Source: Dehalococcoidia bacterium (lineage in GTDB: Bacteria; Chloroflexota; Dehalococcoidia; UBA2979). Taken from it: a stretch of DNA of 64,000 nt. Numbering within the stretch: the first letter of the stretch is position 1; each line of letters starts with the position of its first letter. Of this stretch, positions 42,969 to 48,658 are shown piece after piece. The DNA lies in assembly GCA_965247895.1 (NCBI GenBank), contig OZ252046.1, forward strand, positions 1,975,155 to 2,039,154. The letters are read 5' to 3'. A program made the translations under genes and the position numbers. A model generated the notes under the pieces. That model ran no database searches, was not told the origin of the DNA, and saw only the letters and a list, made by a program, of their open reading frames with translations.

Positions 42969-43337
42969 ATGCACATCGCGCTGATCGCCCTCGGCGGCGC
43001 GGCGGGCGCGCTGCTGCGCTACGGCGTGAGCGAGTGGGTGACGGCGCCGCGCGGCGGCTTCCCGCTGGCGACGCTGCTCGCGAACATCAGCGGTGCCTTC
43101 CTGCTCGGCGTCGCCTCGCTGCTGCTCGTGCGCCTCGAGGTCTCCACGGCGCTGCGGCTCGGCCTGACCGTCGGCGTACTCGGCGCCTACACCACCTTCT
43201 CCACCTTCAGCGTGGAGACGCTGGACCTGCTCAACGACGGCGAGTGGCGGACGGCCGCGCTCTACGTCCTCGCCAGCGTCGCGGGCGCCCTCGCTGCGGC
43301 GTGGGCCGGGCAGAGCCTCGCGCGGGCGACGGGGTAG
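42969..43337 (+). CDS. crcB: fluoride channel CrcB/Fluc
   Basis: 122 aa, four TM helices, GALLRY and TTFSTFS signature motifs. Confidence 0.8.
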   Translation: MHIALIALGGAAGALLRYGVSEWVTAPRGGFPLATLLANISGAFLLGVASLLLVRLEVSTALRLGLTVGVLGAYTTFSTFSVETLDLLNDGEWRTAALYVLASVAGALAAAWAGQSLARATG

Positions 43338-43405
43338 GGGGGCAGTTGCTGCTACTGGCGGGCGCAACGTGCTCTTGACCCCTCTCTCCACACAATAGTA
43401 TCGTT

Positions 43406-43852
43406 GTGTATGTGATACCAGAATTCGAAGCTGGCGGACTCCTCCCACCCGGAGTCCACTGGGCGACCTGGGACGAATTAGTCGAGAGATTCGGGACGAA
43501 CCCGTGGAGGCAACACCTCTTGACCGGACTCAGAGCCGCACTGGAGAACCTGCAAGTCGCGGGCTGCCGGACCGTCTACCTCGACGGGAGCTTCGTGACG
43601 AGCAAGGCGGTCCCGAACGACTACGACGCCTGTTGGGAAGAGGCAGGCGTCGATCCGGATGTCCTCGATCCCGTTCTCCTGACCTTCGACCCCGGGCGAG
43701 TGACGCAGAAGGCCAAGTACCTGGGGGAGTTGTTCCCTGCGTCGTTCGTCGCCGATCAGGACGGGCTGTCGTTCCTTGAGTTCTTCCAAGCGGACAAGGA
43801 CTCCGGGGAGCCCAGGGGGATCATCGCGATAGACCTGGGAGGCCGCATGTGA
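43406..43852 (+). CDS. minimal nucleotidyltransferase (MNT/pol-beta superfamily; DUF6932-like?)
   Basis: GS-x9-DxD motif (YLDGSFVTSKAVPNDYD) typical of pol-beta-type NTases. 148 aa; low-GC leader; stop overlaps the next start (ATGTGA). Confidence 0.5.
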   Translation: MYVIPEFEAGGLLPPGVHWATWDELVERFGTNPWRQHLLTGLRAALENLQVAGCRTVYLDGSFVTSKAVPNDYDACWEEAGVDPDVLDPVLLTFDPGRVTQKAKYLGELFPASFVADQDGLSFLEFFQADKDSGEPRGIIAIDLGGRM

Positions 43853-44259
43853 TCAAGAACGAGCGCCAATACCGGATCACCAAGACCCAGGCGACCCGCT
43901 TCGCGCAGACCCTGGAGAGCCTCGCGAGGCGCGCCGACGAAGACTCGGGGATTCACCCCCGTATCGCCCAGGCTCGGGAGGACGCGCTGAGAAGCCAGCT
44001 CGGAGACCTTGAACGGGAGTTGCGCGAGTACGAGTCCTTGAAGGCGGGTGGATTCGAGCTCGACGAACTGAACGTGTTCGCTGAGCTGGCAACGTTCCTG
44101 ATCAAGGCACGGATCGCGCGGGGCCTGAGTCAAAGGGAGCTGGCGGACCGCATCGGGTTGAAGGAACAGCAGATCCAGCGCTACGAGGCCACCGATTACG
44201 CATCCGCCAGTCTGGCCCGGATCAAGGAGGTCGCGAGCGCCCTGGGCGCGACTGGCTAG
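43849..44259 (+). CDS. XRE-family HTH protein with N-terminal coiled-coil region (candidate partner of the NTase)
   Basis: C-terminal HTH_3 signature (RGLSQRELADRIGLKEQQIQRYE); translationally coupled to the upstream NTase. Confidence 0.55.
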   Translation: MIKNERQYRITKTQATRFAQTLESLARRADEDSGIHPRIAQAREDALRSQLGDLERELREYESLKAGGFELDELNVFAELATFLIKARIARGLSQRELADRIGLKEQQIQRYEATDYASASLARIKEVASALGATG

Positions 44260-44260
44260 C

Positions 44261-44366
44261 CCCGCGCAGCCGCCACCCCGTACAGCAGCCCCTCCACCTC
44301 CCGAGGCGGCCGCCCAGCGCCGCTCCGGGGCGACGGGGAGCGGGGCGCAGACGTCGATCTCGGTGA
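44261..44366 (-). pseudogene. remnant of the 3' end of an LLM oxidoreductase gene (paralogous to the end of 48681-49571), internally deleted
   Basis: 44277-44307 and 44315-44360 match 48703-48733 and 48821-48866 (CGTACAGCAGCCCCTCCACCTCCCG..., GCTCCGGGGCGACGGGGAGCGGGGCGCAGA.GTCGATCTCGG.GAAGTCGCGG). Confidence 0.55.
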
Positions 44367-44375
44367 AGTCGCGGC

Positions 44376-44596
44376 CTGCTGCTCGTGCGCCTCGATGTCT
44401 CCACGGCGCTGCGGCTCGGCCTCACCGTCGGCGTGCTCGGCGCCTACACCACCTTCTCGACCTTCAGCGTGGAGACGCTGGACCTGCTCAGCGACGGCGA
44501 GTGGCGGACGGCCGCGCTCTACGTCCTCGCCAGCGTCGCGGGCGCCCTCGCGGCGGCGTGGGCCGGGCAGAGCCTCGCGCGGGGGGCGGGGTAGGG
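44376..44596 (+). repeat. direct duplicate of the crcB 3' end (copy of 43119-43340), giving a 69-codon crcB fragment
   Basis: About 95% identity over 222 bp; the two copies flank the NTase/HTH cassette and the LLM remnant. Confidence 0.75.
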
Positions 44597-44646
44597 GTGC
44601 CGGCTAGAGCATCGTCGAGGTCAGCGCCGAACGGCGTCGCCGACGG

Positions 44647-47600
44647 TCAGTAGTTGCCCAGGAAGACGATCGTCCCCTCGGCCGTCACTGCCGCGGTGTG
44701 GTAGTGCCCGGCGCTCACGTCGATGAAGGAACCCTCGGGCAGTGAGTTGGTATCGAAGGAGTCATCGAGCCAGCACTCCACGGCGCCCCCGGCCGCCGCG
44801 CCGCAGGTGAGAGTCGGCCCCGCAGTCCTGTAGGGAAAGTCCTTGCCCCAGCATCTGATCGAGCCGTCCGCCTTCACGCCGCAAATGTGCGTCTTAGCCG
44901 AGCTGATCGATGTGAACGTGCCAGCGGGAGGCGTGGTCCGGTCGGAAACGTGCGGGGGGCCCCAGCACGAGATGGTGGCGTCGCTTCTCAACCCGCATGA
45001 ATGCGAACCACCAACCGCGACCGCGGTAAACGTCCCGTCCGGGGGCGTGATCCTGTTGCTGTCGTAGATGTCGTAGCCCCAGCATGCGACGGAGCCGTCG
45101 GTCCGCACTGCGCATGAGTGGTCTTCTCCAGCGCTGACGGAGCTGAAGGAGCCGTCCGGCGACGCAGTCCGGCCGTAGGCGCTGCTACCCCAGCATGTCA
45201 GTTCGCCGCTGGTTCTCACCGCGCAGGTGTGTACTTTTCCGGCGCTGATGGAGACGAACGTGCCGTCGGGCTCAGCAGTCTGACCCCTCTTCCCCCAGCA
45301 GTCGACCGAGCCGCCGGTTCTCAGTCCACACGTGTGGTACTGCCCGGCGCTGACGGCCGTGAAGGATCCCCCGGGCGGGGTGGCTTGCCCGATGAACTCG
45401 CCCTCGAGGTTCTGGTCTGAGCCCCAGCACTCGATCGCGCCGTCTGTCATCAGCCCACACGTATGGTGCTCGCCGGCGCTGACGGAGATGAAGGACCGAG
45501 TTGCGGAACCGGCCTCCCGATCCACGGTTCCAGCGGCCGAGTCGCCGGCGGCGGGTGAGCCCGTCGCGGAGAACGAGGGCTTCGACAGGATTGAGTCCAG
45601 GCCCCAGCACGCGACTGTTCCATCGGGTCGGAGGCCGCACGTGTGGCGCCACCCGGAGGTGACCGATGTGAAGGAGCCCCCGGCCGGTTCGGCCAGACCG
45701 CCGGGTTCGAAGTCTCGGGCCTCCTCAAGAGTCCAACACACGACCGAGCTGTCGGTCATGACCCCGCAGGTACCGGCCAGCCCGGCGCTCACGGATGTGA
45801 AGGGGCCGGGATGGAACGTCGTTACCTCGGTGTGGTTGTGAGGCTTCCAGCAAATCACCGAGCCATCCGTGAGCACCCCGCAGGCATGGAAGAACCCGGA
45901 GCTGATGGATATGTATCGACCCTCGGGCGTCTCCTCGGGGTCGGCCGTGTCGAAGCCCCAGCATGCCGTGGAGCCGTCCGCTCTCAATCCGCAGCTGTAG
46001 TTAGCGGCGCTGAGCTCGATGAAGGATCCATCCGGCGGCGACGTCAGGCCGTTCTGATCAGGACCCCAGCAGGTGACCGAGCCGTCTGCCTGGATCCCGC
46101 AGCTGTGAAACCATCCGGCGCTGACGGCCACGAACGAACCCGAGGGCGGCGTTGCCCGCCCCGCGAACTCCCCGTCCCGTCCCTCGTTGGATCCCCAGCA
46201 CAGCACGGAACCGTCGGTCCGCACGCCACAGGAGTGCTGCCGTCCGGCGCTCACGGCCGTGAAGGAACCGCCGGGCGGCGTGGCCTGACCCAGGCGATCA
46301 TCGCCCCAGCATGCGACGGCCCCGTCGGTCCGTACCCCGCAGGTGTGGTAGAACCCCGCGCTCACCGAGGTGAACGACCCGGCAGGCGGCGTGGCCTGCC
46401 CGTAGTCCGCGATGTTCCAGCAAATCAGCGAGTCGTCCGTCCTCACACCGCAGACCTGGTCCGTTCCCGCGCTCACCGAGCGGAAGGGGCCATCGGGAGC
46501 GGTGCCCAGGCGATTGAGGTCGAGCCCACCGCCTTCGGAGGGAACCCAACACGTCACAGAGCCGTCGCTTTGCAGCCCACACGAGTAGAAGTCGCCGGAA
46601 CTGATGGATGTGAACGAACCCGCGAGCGGTGTGTGTGGGCCAAGGTCGTCGCCCCAGCACACGACGGAGCCTTCCGTGTCGAGCGCGCAGGTGTGTCTCT
46701 GCCCGGCGCTGAGGGCCGTGAACGACCCGGTTGTGGGTGCATCGCGCTGGCGGTAGTAGTTGTCTCCCCAGCAGGTGATCGAGCCGTCGCTCCGCAGCCC
46801 GCAGCTATGGATCCACCCGGCGCTGACGGAGGTGAACGTGCCCTCGGGCGCTGACTGCTGCTCTTCGCCCCAACACACGACCCGGCCGTCGCCCCTCACC
46901 CCGCAGGTGTGAGCGTCTCCGGCGGCGATCGCAACAAAAGCCTCGACGGGTGGCGTGGCCTGCCCCTTGAAGTACCCCGCACTGTCGTTCGATCCCCAGC
47001 ATGCGACCGAGCCGTCGGTTTGGATGCCGCAGGTGTGATGGAGCCCGGCGCTGACGGAGACGAAGGAACCGGGCGGCGGGGTGGCCTTGCCGACAAAACC
47101 GCCGTCCTCGTCCAGGTTGGAGCCCCAGCAGATGACCGAGCCATCGGTCTTCACGCCGCACGCGTGATCCCTCCCGACGGTGACGGACGCGATGGACCTT
47201 GCAGTGGGACGAGGCGTAGGCAGGACGCGGGGCGTCGCGGCGGGTTCTGCCGTGGACTCCGGTGCCGCCGTCCCTTCCGGCACGGACCCGACCTGCTGGT
47301 CGCCGCCATCGAGCGTGGCGAGGACGAGCAGCACTACCACCACTATAACCACAACGACCGAGCCGCCCAGCGCCGCGCCCGTCCACACGAGCGGACGCCC
47401 GAGAGATTCGAGCGTCGCAGGCAGAGCGATGAACCCGAGCACGCGCCGGCGCTCGGGACGCCAAGCGGCGAGCTGCTCGCGGTTGTCGAGCTCGAGCTTC
47501 CCGAGCATGTTCGAGATGTGGTACTTGACGGCGTCGAGGCTGACGCCGAGTCGCTCCGCGATCTCGGCGTTCGTGCCGCCCTTGCGCAGCTCGTTGAGCA

Positions 47601-47664
47601 CGCGCTGCTCGGCGGGGGTGAGGATCTCGGGATGGGGTGGGCGTCCCCGCCCTCGGCGTGTCAT
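44647..47664 (-). CDS. membrane-anchored LuxR-family regulator: N-terminal GerE/LuxR HTH, one TM helix, ~22 tandem RCC1-like (RCC1_2-type, ~38 aa) repeats
   Basis: HTH: TPAEQRVLNELRKGGTNAEIAERLGVSLDAVKYHISNMLGKL. TM: VVVVIVVVVLLVLATL. Repeat unit: ATPPxGSFTSVSAGxxHTCGLRTDGSVxCWGxN..GQ, with 114-bp DNA periodicity from ~44700 to ~47200. Confidence 0.7.
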   Translation of the reverse strand: MTRRGRGRPPHPEILTPAEQRVLNELRKGGTNAEIAERLGVSLDAVKYHISNMLGKLELDNREQLAAWRPERRRVLGFIALPATLESLGRPLVWTGAALGGSVVVVIVVVVLLVLATLDGGDQQVGSVPEGTAAPESTAEPAATPRVLPTPRPTARSIASVTVGRDHACGVKTDGSVICWGSNLDEDGGFVGKATPPPGSFVSVSAGLHHTCGIQTDGSVACWGSNDSAGYFKGQATPPVEAFVAIAAGDAHTCGVRGDGRVVCWGEEQQSAPEGTFTSVSAGWIHSCGLRSDGSITCWGDNYYRQRDAPTTGSFTALSAGQRHTCALDTEGSVVCWGDDLGPHTPLAGSFTSISSGDFYSCGLQSDGSVTCWVPSEGGGLDLNRLGTAPDGPFRSVSAGTDQVCGVRTDDSLICWNIADYGQATPPAGSFTSVSAGFYHTCGVRTDGAVACWGDDRLGQATPPGGSFTAVSAGRQHSCGVRTDGSVLCWGSNEGRDGEFAGRATPPSGSFVAVSAGWFHSCGIQADGSVTCWGPDQNGLTSPPDGSFIELSAANYSCGLRADGSTACWGFDTADPEETPEGRYISISSGFFHACGVLTDGSVICWKPHNHTEVTTFHPGPFTSVSAGLAGTCGVMTDSSVVCWTLEEARDFEPGGLAEPAGGSFTSVTSGWRHTCGLRPDGTVACWGLDSILSKPSFSATGSPAAGDSAAGTVDREAGSATRSFISVSAGEHHTCGLMTDGAIECWGSDQNLEGEFIGQATPPGGSFTAVSAGQYHTCGLRTGGSVDCWGKRGQTAEPDGTFVSISAGKVHTCAVRTSGELTCWGSSAYGRTASPDGSFSSVSAGEDHSCAVRTDGSVACWGYDIYDSNRITPPDGTFTAVAVGGSHSCGLRSDATISCWGPPHVSDRTTPPAGTFTSISSAKTHICGVKADGSIRCWGKDFPYRTAGPTLTCGAAAGGAVECWLDDSFDTNSLPEGSFIDVSAGHYHTAAVTAEGTIVFLGNY

Positions 47665-47711
47665 GGGGTAAGCCTAGAACCCCGCGCCGCGATTTTCCCT
47701 ACCCGGCGGGC

Positions 47712-48333
47712 CCCCTCACCCCCGCCCTCTCCCGCAAGGGGAGAGAGACACCCCATGGTGCTAACTGGTCAAGCGGCGAGCTGCTCGCGGTCGTGCCGGT
47801 GCGCCCAGGCGGTGGCCTCGTCGTAGCAGGTGCGGGTCCTGAGGCAGCCGTGGAGGTAGCCGACGAGGCGGTTGGCGAGGGCGCGCAGCGCCTGGTGGTG
47901 CAGGTCGCCGGCGGCTCGCCGCCGCTGGTAGAAGTCGTGGCAGCCCGGGCTCGCCCGCAGCGAGCAGAGCGCCCAGCGGTCCGCGGCGTCGGCGAGCCAG
48001 CGGTTGCGCACGAAGCGGGCGCGCACGGTGCGTTTGCGTCCCGATGCTACGGTCAGCGGCGAGGTGCCGGCGTAGTTCCTGCGGGACTTCGCCGACTCGT
48101 AGCGTTCGGGGTCGTCCCCGAACTCGCCGAGCACGACACCGAGTCCGGGCAGGGAGCGGTAGATCGCGGCGTCCGGGTGCTGCTCAAAATGGCTCGCGAG
48201 CTCGGCCTCGAGCTCCTTGATCTGACGGTTGATCTCGCCGATCTGACCGACCGTGGCGCGCGTGCTCGCGGCGAACGCTCGGCTTACCGCGGGCGGCGCC
48301 CCGAGCTGCGGGGAGCGCAACGCCGCGCGGACC
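47712..48333 (-). mobile_element. truncated, diverged second copy of IS-A (3' ~620 bp only) with the transposase pseudogene 47769-~48333
   Basis: Same right end as the 20337 copy. Encodes the C-terminal ~185 aa of the transposase with small indels relative to the complete copy. Homology stops abruptly at ~48333. Confidence 0.7.
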
Positions 48334-48393
48334 GCGCCGTGTCTTGACCTTCTTGTGCTCGTACTCGACGCTGCCGAACGAACGCTGCTGCAT
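48334..48393 (-). mobile_element. fragment of an IS5-family transposase N-terminus
   Basis: MQQRSFGSVEYEHKKVKTRR matches the conserved IS5-family transposase start (...SF.D.EY..KKK.TRRE.FL...); truncated by the IS-A fragment. Confidence 0.45.
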
Positions 48394-48466
48394 GGGGCGC
48401 CCCTCTCCGGGTCCGCGTCCCATGATCGCATCCGCTCACCCGCTCAGGCGAGTTGTTCAGACCATC

Positions 48467-48658
48467 CCTAATGGAACAGTGCTCTCGGGCACGACACCCC
48501 ATGAGTGCTGCGGACCACCCGGACGTACCAGCCGGGGCACGGTCTCTCCCAAGAGATCCCGAGGTCTCAGGGAGCCACAGTGCTCACCAGCCGGCCGGTC
48601 CGGGACCAGTCTCCCAGATCGCTCCGGGGTTCCGGTCGAACCCCATTAGGGAGCCGGA
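48467..48658 (-). mobile_element. MITE-like internal-deletion derivative of IS-B (left ~45 bp fused to right ~145 bp)
   Basis: 48467-48510 matches 21677-21720 and 48511-48658 matches ~23250-23397; retains the CCTAATGG/CCATTAGG terminal inverted pair. Confidence 0.6.

Follow-up and report, generated by a model that had tools for sequence, protein, structure and literature searches.

Single-pass transmembrane transcription regulators (TTRs) are the simplest bacterial route from an outside signal to gene expression, and nearly all that is known of their mechanism was learned on a handful of ToxR-type proteins in enteric pathogens. Demey et al. 2023, who define TTRs as proteins that unite a DNA-binding domain and at least one transmembrane (TM) region, count 50,302 of them, 56% single-pass, with GerE as the third commonest DNA-binding domain (4,943 proteins), and describe no multi-copy family or cassette exchange for the GerE TTRs (PMC10269533). 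The supplement assigns RCC1 to just 4 of the 50,302 and RCC1_2 likewise to 4, and it also includes Roseiflexus castenholzii Rcas_0145, a 454-aa protein with GerE, four Kelch repeats, and one TM region. Here we describe a gene at 44647..47664 (-) of a 64,000-nt stretch of DNA (the window) from a Dehalococcoidia bacterium (Chloroflexota; assembly GCA_965247895.1, contig OZ252046.1, positions 1,975,155 to 2,039,154). The encoded protein has an N-terminal helix-turn-helix (HTH) with a GRP arm, a TM helix some 30 residues farther on, and propellers in its C-terminal 850 residues; its GerE match, together with a helix found by both hydropathy and AlphaFold (AF2), places it among the TTRs as defined above. 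We read it as a single-pass TTR and thus a membrane-integrated one-component system, with a probability of about 0.6.

A LuxR-type HTH joined to a predicted membrane anchor

The gene is real and intact, an ATG-started minus-strand open reading frame (ORF) of 1005 aa, and exact protein look-up in public assemblies returned no record of it. Its parts are as follows.

Residues 1-13, 47626..47664 (-): basic N-terminal arm MTRRGRGRPPHPE with a GRP core, AT-hook-like (family alignments)
Residues 14-67, 47464..47625 (-): GerE/LuxR HTH (Pfam, AF2)
Residues 68-96, 47377..47463 (-): conserved juxtamembrane segment, AAWRPERRR...LGRPLxW (family alignments)
Residues 97-117, 47314..47376 (-): single TM helix, predicted type II signal-anchor, N-in/C-out (hydropathy, AF2)
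Residues 118-154, 47203..47313 (-): acidic Pro/Thr/Ala-rich stalk, predicted extracytoplasmic (sequence, AF2)
Residues 155-418, 46411..47202 (-): predicted RCC1-type propeller 1, blades 1-7 (RCC1_2/WD40_RLD, blade list, AF2 mostly >90)
Residues 425-690, 45595..46392 (-): predicted RCC1-type propeller 2, blades 8-14 (Pfam, blade list, AF2)
Residues 691-720, 45505..45594 (-): Ser/Ala/Gly-rich inter-propeller linker (60-aa gap between blades 14 and 15, AF2)
Residues 721-1005, 44650..45504 (-): predicted RCC1-type propeller 3, six confident blades plus one short and one Cys-less terminal unit (blade list, AF2)

The original prediction for this gene, made before any database search, was of a 1005-aa protein with a GerE/LuxR HTH, one hydrophobic helix after it, and extracytoplasmic RCC1-like repeats that probably form three propellers. 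The coordinates and length of the ORF are as it gave them, and Pfam, hydropathy, AF2, and Foldseek uphold the overall architecture.

The Pfam scan finds GerE (PF00196) at residues 14-67 with 48.5 bits against a cut-off of 23.5, which agrees with the predicted HTH. The AF2 model (run with alignment A3 of 60 sequences; mean predicted local distance difference test [pLDDT] of 78 overall) has four helices there, at 17-27, 32-39, 43-57, and 62-67, with pLDDT of 94-97. PDB sequence matches of the HTH include the DNA-binding domains of VraR, NarL, and ComA; in the NCBIfam and PDB searches only the HTH portion of NarL-, VraR-, CsgD-, and ComA-type proteins was matched, and the SdiA and RhlR matches were likewise restricted to it. 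Autoind_bind is absent from the Pfam scan at E <= 1, and there is no match to Response_reg, the NCBIfam matches being to the C-terminal HTH of those models and far below their cut-offs. Trans_reg_C, a kinase, and a cysteine-rich domain are also all without a match in the Pfam scan of the protein. One further match, PLDc at residues 207-227, scores 21.9 bits, exactly its cut-off, and we judged it to be a chance resemblance of HHTCGIQTDGSV to the HKD motif.

Both neighbors of the HTH are conserved. In family alignments of 29 and 75 members (see below), residues G7, R8, P9, and P12 of the arm are conserved in at least 90%, and an AT-hook is what the GRP motif alone suggests. W68 is invariant or nearly so, and R74 and an LGRPL.W.G consensus are kept, in a juxtamembrane segment where AF2 confidence is low.

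The only predicted membrane span comes next. A Kyte-Doolittle scan of 19 residues gives one peak, 3.13 at residues 97-115, which is the sole window above 1.6 (the runner-up in the protein is 1.19), and AF2 places a helix at 102-117. There is no N-terminal signal peptide, the sole hydrophobic segment coming after the HTH. On its N flank (70-91) are 4 K/R and 2 D/E, with four Arg (RPERRR) ahead of the helix; the outer flank (118-160), acidic at its start, has 3 K/R and 5 D/E. The 42 Cys of the protein are all C-terminal to the helix, at two per blade, and the first 150 residues have none. Homologs of the RCC1_2 array are mostly secreted or surface proteins (with fused S8 peptidase, SLH, Big_2, fn3, PPC, or leucine-rich repeat [LRR] domains), and others are single-pass Ser/Thr kinases. 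The positive-inside charge bias, the post-TM cysteines, the secreted or surface location of homologous arrays, and the extracellular location of the structural relative ACR4 together argue for an N-in/C-out topology, in which the N terminus is very likely cytoplasmic and the propellers are outside the membrane. The stalk between them is disordered in the AF2 model (pLDDT <50 at 115-154).

The repeats as predicted seven-bladed propellers

The repeats match RCC1_2 (PF13540) with 409.7 bits in 18 stretches and WD40_RLD (PF25390) with 251.9 bits (cut-off 150), in line with the predicted RCC1-like family rather than PQQ or Kelch. Twenty-one units have the pattern C-x(6-10)-C-W and are followed by a Cys-less terminal unit, which accounts for the approximately 22 repeats first counted. 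AF2 resolves them into three beta-rich blocks with pLDDT of about 90 or above (155-418, 425-690, and 721 to ~940), separated by low-confidence breaks at 419-424 and 691-720, with pLDDT <50 at 691-701 and 706-720 of the linker. In a Foldseek search of the PDB, the top match is BLIP-II 1jtd_B (E = 3e-18, target TM-score 0.75, root mean square deviation [rmsd] 2.5 A, 274 columns, for a 273-residue protein), followed by the ACR4 and PpCR4 ectodomains (0.74-0.77) and then by UVR8 and RCC1; propeller 1 superposes on the seven-bladed propellers of BLIP-II and ACR4 with target TM-scores of 0.74-0.77. The best PDB sequence match is ACR4 7a0j (E = 8e-23), aligned to residues 433-572. Since the blocks superpose on BLIP-II and ACR4/PpCR4, the repeats are modeled as three seven-bladed RCC1-type propellers of the BLIP-II/CRINKLY4 type, with the closure of the third uncertain.

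The 21 blades share the motif HTCG[VL]..DGS..CWG, which equals the CGV/CWG pair of ACR4 in motif and spacing. In ACR4 a disulfide between these motifs staples each blade (bioRxiv 10.1101/2020.08.10.245050; PMC4617170), and by analogy the cysteine pairs here probably form disulfides as well. The blade disulfides are called a unique CRINKLY4 feature in the ACR4 structure paper (bioRxiv 10.1101/2020.08.10.245050); as judged from sequence, the crinkly CG./CWG cysteine motif is widespread in bacterial extracellular RCC1_2 arrays.

The array is less regular than first supposed. The original prediction was of near-regular 38-aa repeats with a strict 114-bp period, long and near-identical, and thus a hotspot for expansion or contraction, and none of this is borne out. 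Successive CW-to-CW spacings are 43, 42, 34, 38, 36, 43, 37, 37, 43, 36, 37, 38, 43, 60, 43, 35, 37, 39, 38, and 26 residues (26-60 aa overall, mostly 34-43), and in DNA autocorrelation the top lags are 111 and 129 nt, with 114 ninth. Tandem Repeats Finder reports no tandem array in the gene. The 27-residue repeat cores have mean identities of 51% in protein and 62% in DNA (maximum 77%; 50% at third positions), and the longest exact direct repeat within the gene is 17 nt, so that slippage-type change is unlikely and a tandem-repeat hotspot can be set aside. Recent duplication of a whole propeller was also considered and rejected, blade scores at lags 7 and 14 being 0.42-0.43 compared with 0.39-0.44 at other lags. 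The blades thus appear to be ancient and diverged and not a slippage-prone array.

A multi-copy family with unrelated ectodomains

A family protein search with residues 1-157 as the query found ~106 proteins, and every source that names an organism is a Chloroflexota or Dehalococcoidia metagenome-assembled genome (MAG). Scanning species-representative genomes with an N-terminal profile gave 417 confirmed matches, and the figures for taxonomy, ORFs, and ectodomains that follow are for the best 80 of the 417 genomic matches (77 loci). All 80 are in Dehalococcoidia, Tepidiformaceae, or unclassified Chloroflexota MAGs, with at least 4 to 5 copies per genome among them. Some of the MAGs make the family partly sponge-associated: the SB06xx and IRC bins are sponge-MAG series, and Ircinia ramosa is given as the source of one SB0661 Chloroflexota bin. 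A second search, of 1.84 billion representatives with the A1 profile, does not give a clean family count because the profile took in RCC1 columns; repeat arrays topped its ranking, and among the first 150 entries ~12 align from position 1 of the profile.

The 77 loci have ORFs of 144 to 1247 aa (median ~640), and in 75 of the 77 a TM helix lies at about residues 78-126, the same position as in the window protein. Ectodomains were scanned in 75 ORFs (74 loci and the window protein), all of which have GerE.

RCC1_2/RLD ectodomain: 22 of 75 members
SH3_3 ectodomain: 10 of 75 members
LRR ectodomain: 6 of 75 members
CarboxypepD_reg ectodomain: 5 of 75 members
Ectodomain without a Pfam match: the remaining members of the 75

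The HTH is the most conserved part across the 75 paralogs with their unrelated ectodomains, and the invariant or near-invariant positions are the GRP core, the LuxR consensus residues, and the juxtamembrane W68, R74, and LGRPL.W.G. RCC1 arrays in the family have 7-8, 10-15, 20, or 29 blades, corresponding to one to four propellers, and the window protein is among the largest. Members with an intact HTH-TM-RCC1 order include L004 (690 aa), L006 (1247 aa), L017 (928 aa), and a 677-aa paralog at L001. Short members of 100-260 aa were considered as a true HTH-TM-only or three-blade form and rejected, since at L001-L003 the repeats resume in another frame; intact family ORFs in reference genomes are mostly 400-1250 aa, and the short forms are, as far as sequence can tell, mostly split gene calls. 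Neither the HTH-TM family, nor its sponge-Chloroflexota expansion, nor ectodomain cassette exchange turned up in the literature under combinations of LuxR, RCC1, transmembrane, Chloroflexi, and sponge.

We note three further observations on relatives. A 2.54-Mb circular contig (125x) carries two tandem HTH-TM-RCC1 paralogs (L001:6001-10112), the first frameshifted after three blades with the repeats resuming in frame +2, and the second intact, with 677 aa and ~14 blades. More distant HTH relatives (P0201-P0224), of ~210 aa, have GerE and a glyoxalase/VOC domain (PF00903) without a TM helix and appear to be a separate soluble one-component architecture of the same HTH lineage. Giant proteins of 5,400-7,000 aa (P0227-P0229, P0244, P0264, and P0284) have 28-41 matches to the RCC1 part of the A1 profile, which makes them very long arrays of the blade type seen here.

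Apparent ectodomain exchange between syntenic loci

Syntenic loci are present in four other assemblies (L002, L003, L004, and L005), with a shared order of two luciferase-like monooxygenases, the regulator gene, a crcB fragment, XRE, DUF6932, crcB, enoyl-CoA hydratase, and CoA-transferase. Comparison with the window gives sharply bounded segments.

52000-48648: 95-97% identical in syntenic loci
48647-47749: 900-bp remnant of an insertion sequence (IS) of the IS110 family, absent from L002-L005
47748-47290: 84 nt upstream plus codons 1-125, 89-91% identical (blastn) in L002-L005; the conserved upstream region itself is 47665..47748 (-), also 89-91% identical
44604..47289 (-): ectodomain cassette of 2.69 kb, no blastn high-scoring segment pair to L002, L003, or L005, and a 57-nt match to L004 only
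44603 onward: 96-97% identical where the contig extends; L003 ~95.6% over 340 nt to the contig end

In a codon alignment, codons 1-125 are 88-93% identical. The syntenic alleles have a different flavor of repeat, HACAVRESGEV.CWG, with 13-14 blades, and their ectodomains are mutually 74-89% identical. The closest ectodomain among the fetched loci is that of a paralog in another MAG (L018), with 54% protein and 63-73% DNA identity. By these comparisons, the ectodomain at this locus behaves like a cassette that strains can exchange. Horizontal acquisition of the gene had been proposed from its AT richness, and the gene is indeed AT-richer than its flanks, with a GC content at third codon positions (GC3) of 0.82 compared with 0.94-0.98 for core neighbors; the DUF6932/XRE pair and the IS remnant are low too. 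The proposal holds for the 2.69-kb ectodomain cassette, which is foreign to the syntenic alleles, and fails for the 84 nt and the HTH-TM module, which are native. Similarly, the expected variation in repeat number between strains is found (13-14 versus 21-22 blades), but by replacement of the cassette and not by slippage.

The ratio of nonsynonymous to synonymous substitutions (dN/dS; Nei-Gojobori) among the syntenic alleles is ~0.3 for the HTH/N-terminal module and also for the ectodomain and the flanking monooxygenase. Ectodomain dS is 0.3-0.77 versus 0.10-0.14 in the flank, so the ectodomain lineages are older than the surrounding genome, a signature of cassette exchange or of long-maintained allelic lineages, and not of relaxed constraint. 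L002 and L003 (87% identical) differ by ~20 small indels whose lengths are not divisible by three and which cluster in the 3' third of an 11x contig. Many of the frameshifts in metagenome family members may be long-read consensus errors and not pseudogenes, and we do not claim widespread pseudogenization.

Flanking genes and mobile elements

The flanks contain crcB, a DUF6932/XRE pair, a crcB 3' fragment, and an IS110-family C-terminal fragment, so that the gene does lie between a crcB duplication scar and IS debris, as had been predicted. On the downstream side (42969-44594), DUF6932 (43406-43852) and an XRE-type HTH (43849-44259) are between crcB (42969-43337) and its 3' fragment (44385-44594), which looks like the outcome of an old event in which a toxin-antitoxin-like two-gene module was inserted and the 3' end of crcB regenerated. 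All three syntenic loci long enough to show the scar (L002, L004, and L005) have it, so it predates divergence of the strains.

Upstream, the 900-bp IS110-family transposase remnant (47749..48647 [-]) lies 85 nt from the start codon and is in the window strain only; its ORF (47769-48431) matches just the C-terminal domain of Transposase_20. It may alter transcription of the regulator in this strain. In L005 (7540-10146; MAG CBDCPB01), a 2.6-kb IS21-family element coding for IstA (rve and Mu-transposase C) and IstB splits the ortholog, and the two elements mark the locus as a mobile-element target. A perfect 7-bp inverted repeat, CTCTCCC-N5-GGGAGAG (47727-47733/47739-47745), lies at the far end of the conserved upstream region, immediately against the IS110 remnant; candidate roles for it are operator, terminator stem of the gene upstream, and IS target.

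Proposed function and alternative explanations

GerE-type HTHs of the LuxR class bind DNA by dimerizing on an inverted repeat. If the protein is a membrane-integrated regulator, its propellers would bind an extracellular macromolecule, perhaps a protein or glycan of the host, a neighbor, or a phage, a macromolecular ligand being likely because the nearest structural relatives are protein binders. On binding, the tethered HTH would change its conformation or oligomeric state and so switch the transcription of its target genes while still anchored in the membrane, as ToxR and CadC do; the original comparison with ToxR-like signaling seems apt.

Several points weigh against this reading. At ~30 residues, the HTH-TM linker is short by comparison with ToxR and CadC. 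The topology is drawn from hydropathy, charge, and cysteine distribution, and low AF2 confidence over the last 64 residues leaves the closure of propeller 3 unsettled. A partner or target gene was sought by clustering the ORFs around 81 loci, and no neighbor is kept family-wide; recurring neighbors are only ordinary abundant metabolic genes (CoA-transferase III, acyl-CoA dehydrogenase, P450, and MetH) and synteny within one subfamily. A promoter and terminator scan found nothing above shuffled expectation and no sigma-70-like promoter. At the syntenic loci, the L002 and L003 alleles are frameshifted and L005 is split by IS21, so the locus may be dispensable, and L004 is intact with 690 aa.

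An alternative reading is regulated intramembrane proteolysis, in which the same domains and topology would signal by a site-1 and then a site-2 protease that free the ~95-residue HTH as a soluble dimer. Ligand binding, or its loss, would expose the stalk or juxtamembrane segment, by analogy with RsgI/RseA-type anti-sigma cascades and with Notch/SREBP. The short linker makes chromosomal DNA awkward to reach from the membrane, the juxtamembrane W68, R74, and LGRPL.W.G are conserved beyond what a passive tether needs, the long disordered stalk (118-154) could be a site-1 substrate, and proteolysis is documented in the literature for the transmembrane regulators TcpP and CadC. Yet no protease gene is kept beside family members at the 81 loci, and in the best-studied TTRs proteolysis is mostly inactivating (TcpP); overall we consider this mechanism unlikely, if worth keeping in view.

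A role as a surface binder is a weaker candidate, and we doubt it. Here the protein would be a eukaryotic-like adhesin or decoy for host or phage, the HTH would serve autoregulation or no signaling at all, and the cassette diversity would reflect an arms race. That ectodomains are replaced between strains with 95-97% identical flanks and have the elevated dS described above, with mobile elements in or beside the locus, is in keeping with this, as are the mostly secreted or surface location of RCC1_2 arrays, a top structural match (BLIP-II) that is a picomolar protein binder, and the enrichment of eukaryotic-like repeat proteins in sponge symbionts (PMC11706023). For mere display, though, a signal peptide or lipobox would suffice, and an HTH that is under purifying selection, with a DNA-binding consensus invariant in 75 paralogs, is hard to explain as a mere anchor. 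Since the HTH is also the most conserved part of proteins whose ectodomains are unrelated, we consider it unlikely that the protein is purely adhesive and its HTH vestigial.

That the gene is a decaying or chimeric remnant without function, made by IS-mediated fusion of an HTH-TM gene to a foreign RCC1 gene, is highly improbable, for although the IS110 remnant lies 85 nt upstream in the window strain only, orthologs are frameshifted or disrupted by IS21, and GC3 is atypical (0.82 versus ~0.96), 1005 codons stay open in 68% GC DNA, none of the 21 Cys pairs or the structural Gly/Trp positions has been lost, AF2 models the protein with confidence, and HTH-TM-RCC1 is intact in many genomes (L004, L006, L017, and the L001 paralog).

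The membrane-integrated regulator is the reading we carry forward, and a broader proposal can be built on it, tentatively and as a possibility that we rate well short of even odds. Dehalococcoidia-type Chloroflexota, many of them sponge-associated, may have a modular family of receptor-transcription factors, in which a constant arm, HTH, juxtamembrane segment, and TM helix are joined to eukaryote-like binding ectodomains (disulfide-stapled crinkly/RCC1 propellers, LRR, and SH3) in at least 5 copies per ~3-Mb genome. Ectodomains would be exchanged among paralogs and strains with the 5' module as a recombination arm, so that a repertoire of sensors for surface molecules of host or phage would keep diversifying, each with its output directly in transcription, as a bacterial counterpart of the plant receptor-kinase families. 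The locus offers a LuxR-type version of a TTR with an unusually large sensor, predicted to be of a protein-binding type, and this sensor is an interchangeable module within a family that has expanded in uncultivated Chloroflexota, sponge symbionts among them. Should the ectodomains recognize host or phage molecules, they would provide a concrete handle on how symbionts perceive their host, and the candidates are testable, as the HTH and ectodomains can be expressed separately.

Comparison with known systems

TTRs as a kind are already known, GerE-propeller forms are uncharacterized, and the combination of a LuxR HTH with a triple crinkly-type propeller is rare; what appears to be new is a multi-copy modular family and the sharply bounded replacement of ectodomains between near-identical strains. 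The closest TTR in domain content is Rcas_0145, also from Chloroflexota and also with a GerE HTH, a single TM region, and a beta-propeller ectodomain, which differs in having Kelch in place of RCC1 repeats and one propeller versus the three predicted here. With LuxR, RhlR, NarL/VraR, and GerE itself the protein shares a homologous four-helix HTH_LuxR. It differs from the canonical LuxR family in that the HTH is N-terminal and not C-terminal, the protein is predicted to be membrane-tethered, and there is no autoinducer-binding or receiver domain; without Autoind_bind it is not a quorum-sensing LuxR, and without a receiver domain it is not a response regulator.

The ectodomain has its nearest counterparts elsewhere. 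BLIP-II of Streptomyces exfoliatus (1jtd and 3qhy) is a bacterial extracellular seven-bladed RCC1-type propeller and a tight protein binder (TM-score 0.75, rmsd 2.4-2.5 A over its full length), but it is a soluble, secreted single propeller without a membrane anchor, a DNA-binding domain, or blade disulfides. ACR4 (7a0j and 7a0k) is a single-pass receptor with a seven-bladed RCC1-like propeller fold, as is predicted for the window protein, and both have a CGx...CWG pair per blade. ACR4 is eukaryotic, with one propeller plus a TNFR-like cysteine-rich domain and a C-terminal cytoplasmic kinase in a type I orientation, whereas the window protein is predicted to be type II with an N-terminal HTH, and it is not a CRINKLY4 kinase, since it has neither a kinase nor a cysteine-rich domain. 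Two bacterial single-pass Ser/Thr kinases (P0026 and P0064) share with it the RCC1_2 ectodomain, single TM helix, and CG./CWG pair and differ in having a kinase and not an HTH as output, in the order kinase, TM, repeats. We note that the architecture of these two kinases parallels that of plant CRINKLY4.

ToxR, TcpP, CadC, and VtrA have the plan that is predicted here, in which a single polypeptide runs from a cytoplasmic DNA-binding domain at the N terminus through one TM helix to an extracytoplasmic sensor at the C terminus. Their DNA-binding domain is an OmpR-type winged helix (Trans_reg_C), their sensors are small periplasmic alpha/beta or lipocalin-like domains, and there is often a co-component (ToxS, TcpH, or VtrC). 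The window protein, in contrast, has a GerE/LuxR domain, a predicted three-propeller sensor of ~850 residues, and no conserved partner gene at the 81 loci. As judged from its sequence, it would work like the ToxR family and yet not be a member, because it has no Trans_reg_C domain.

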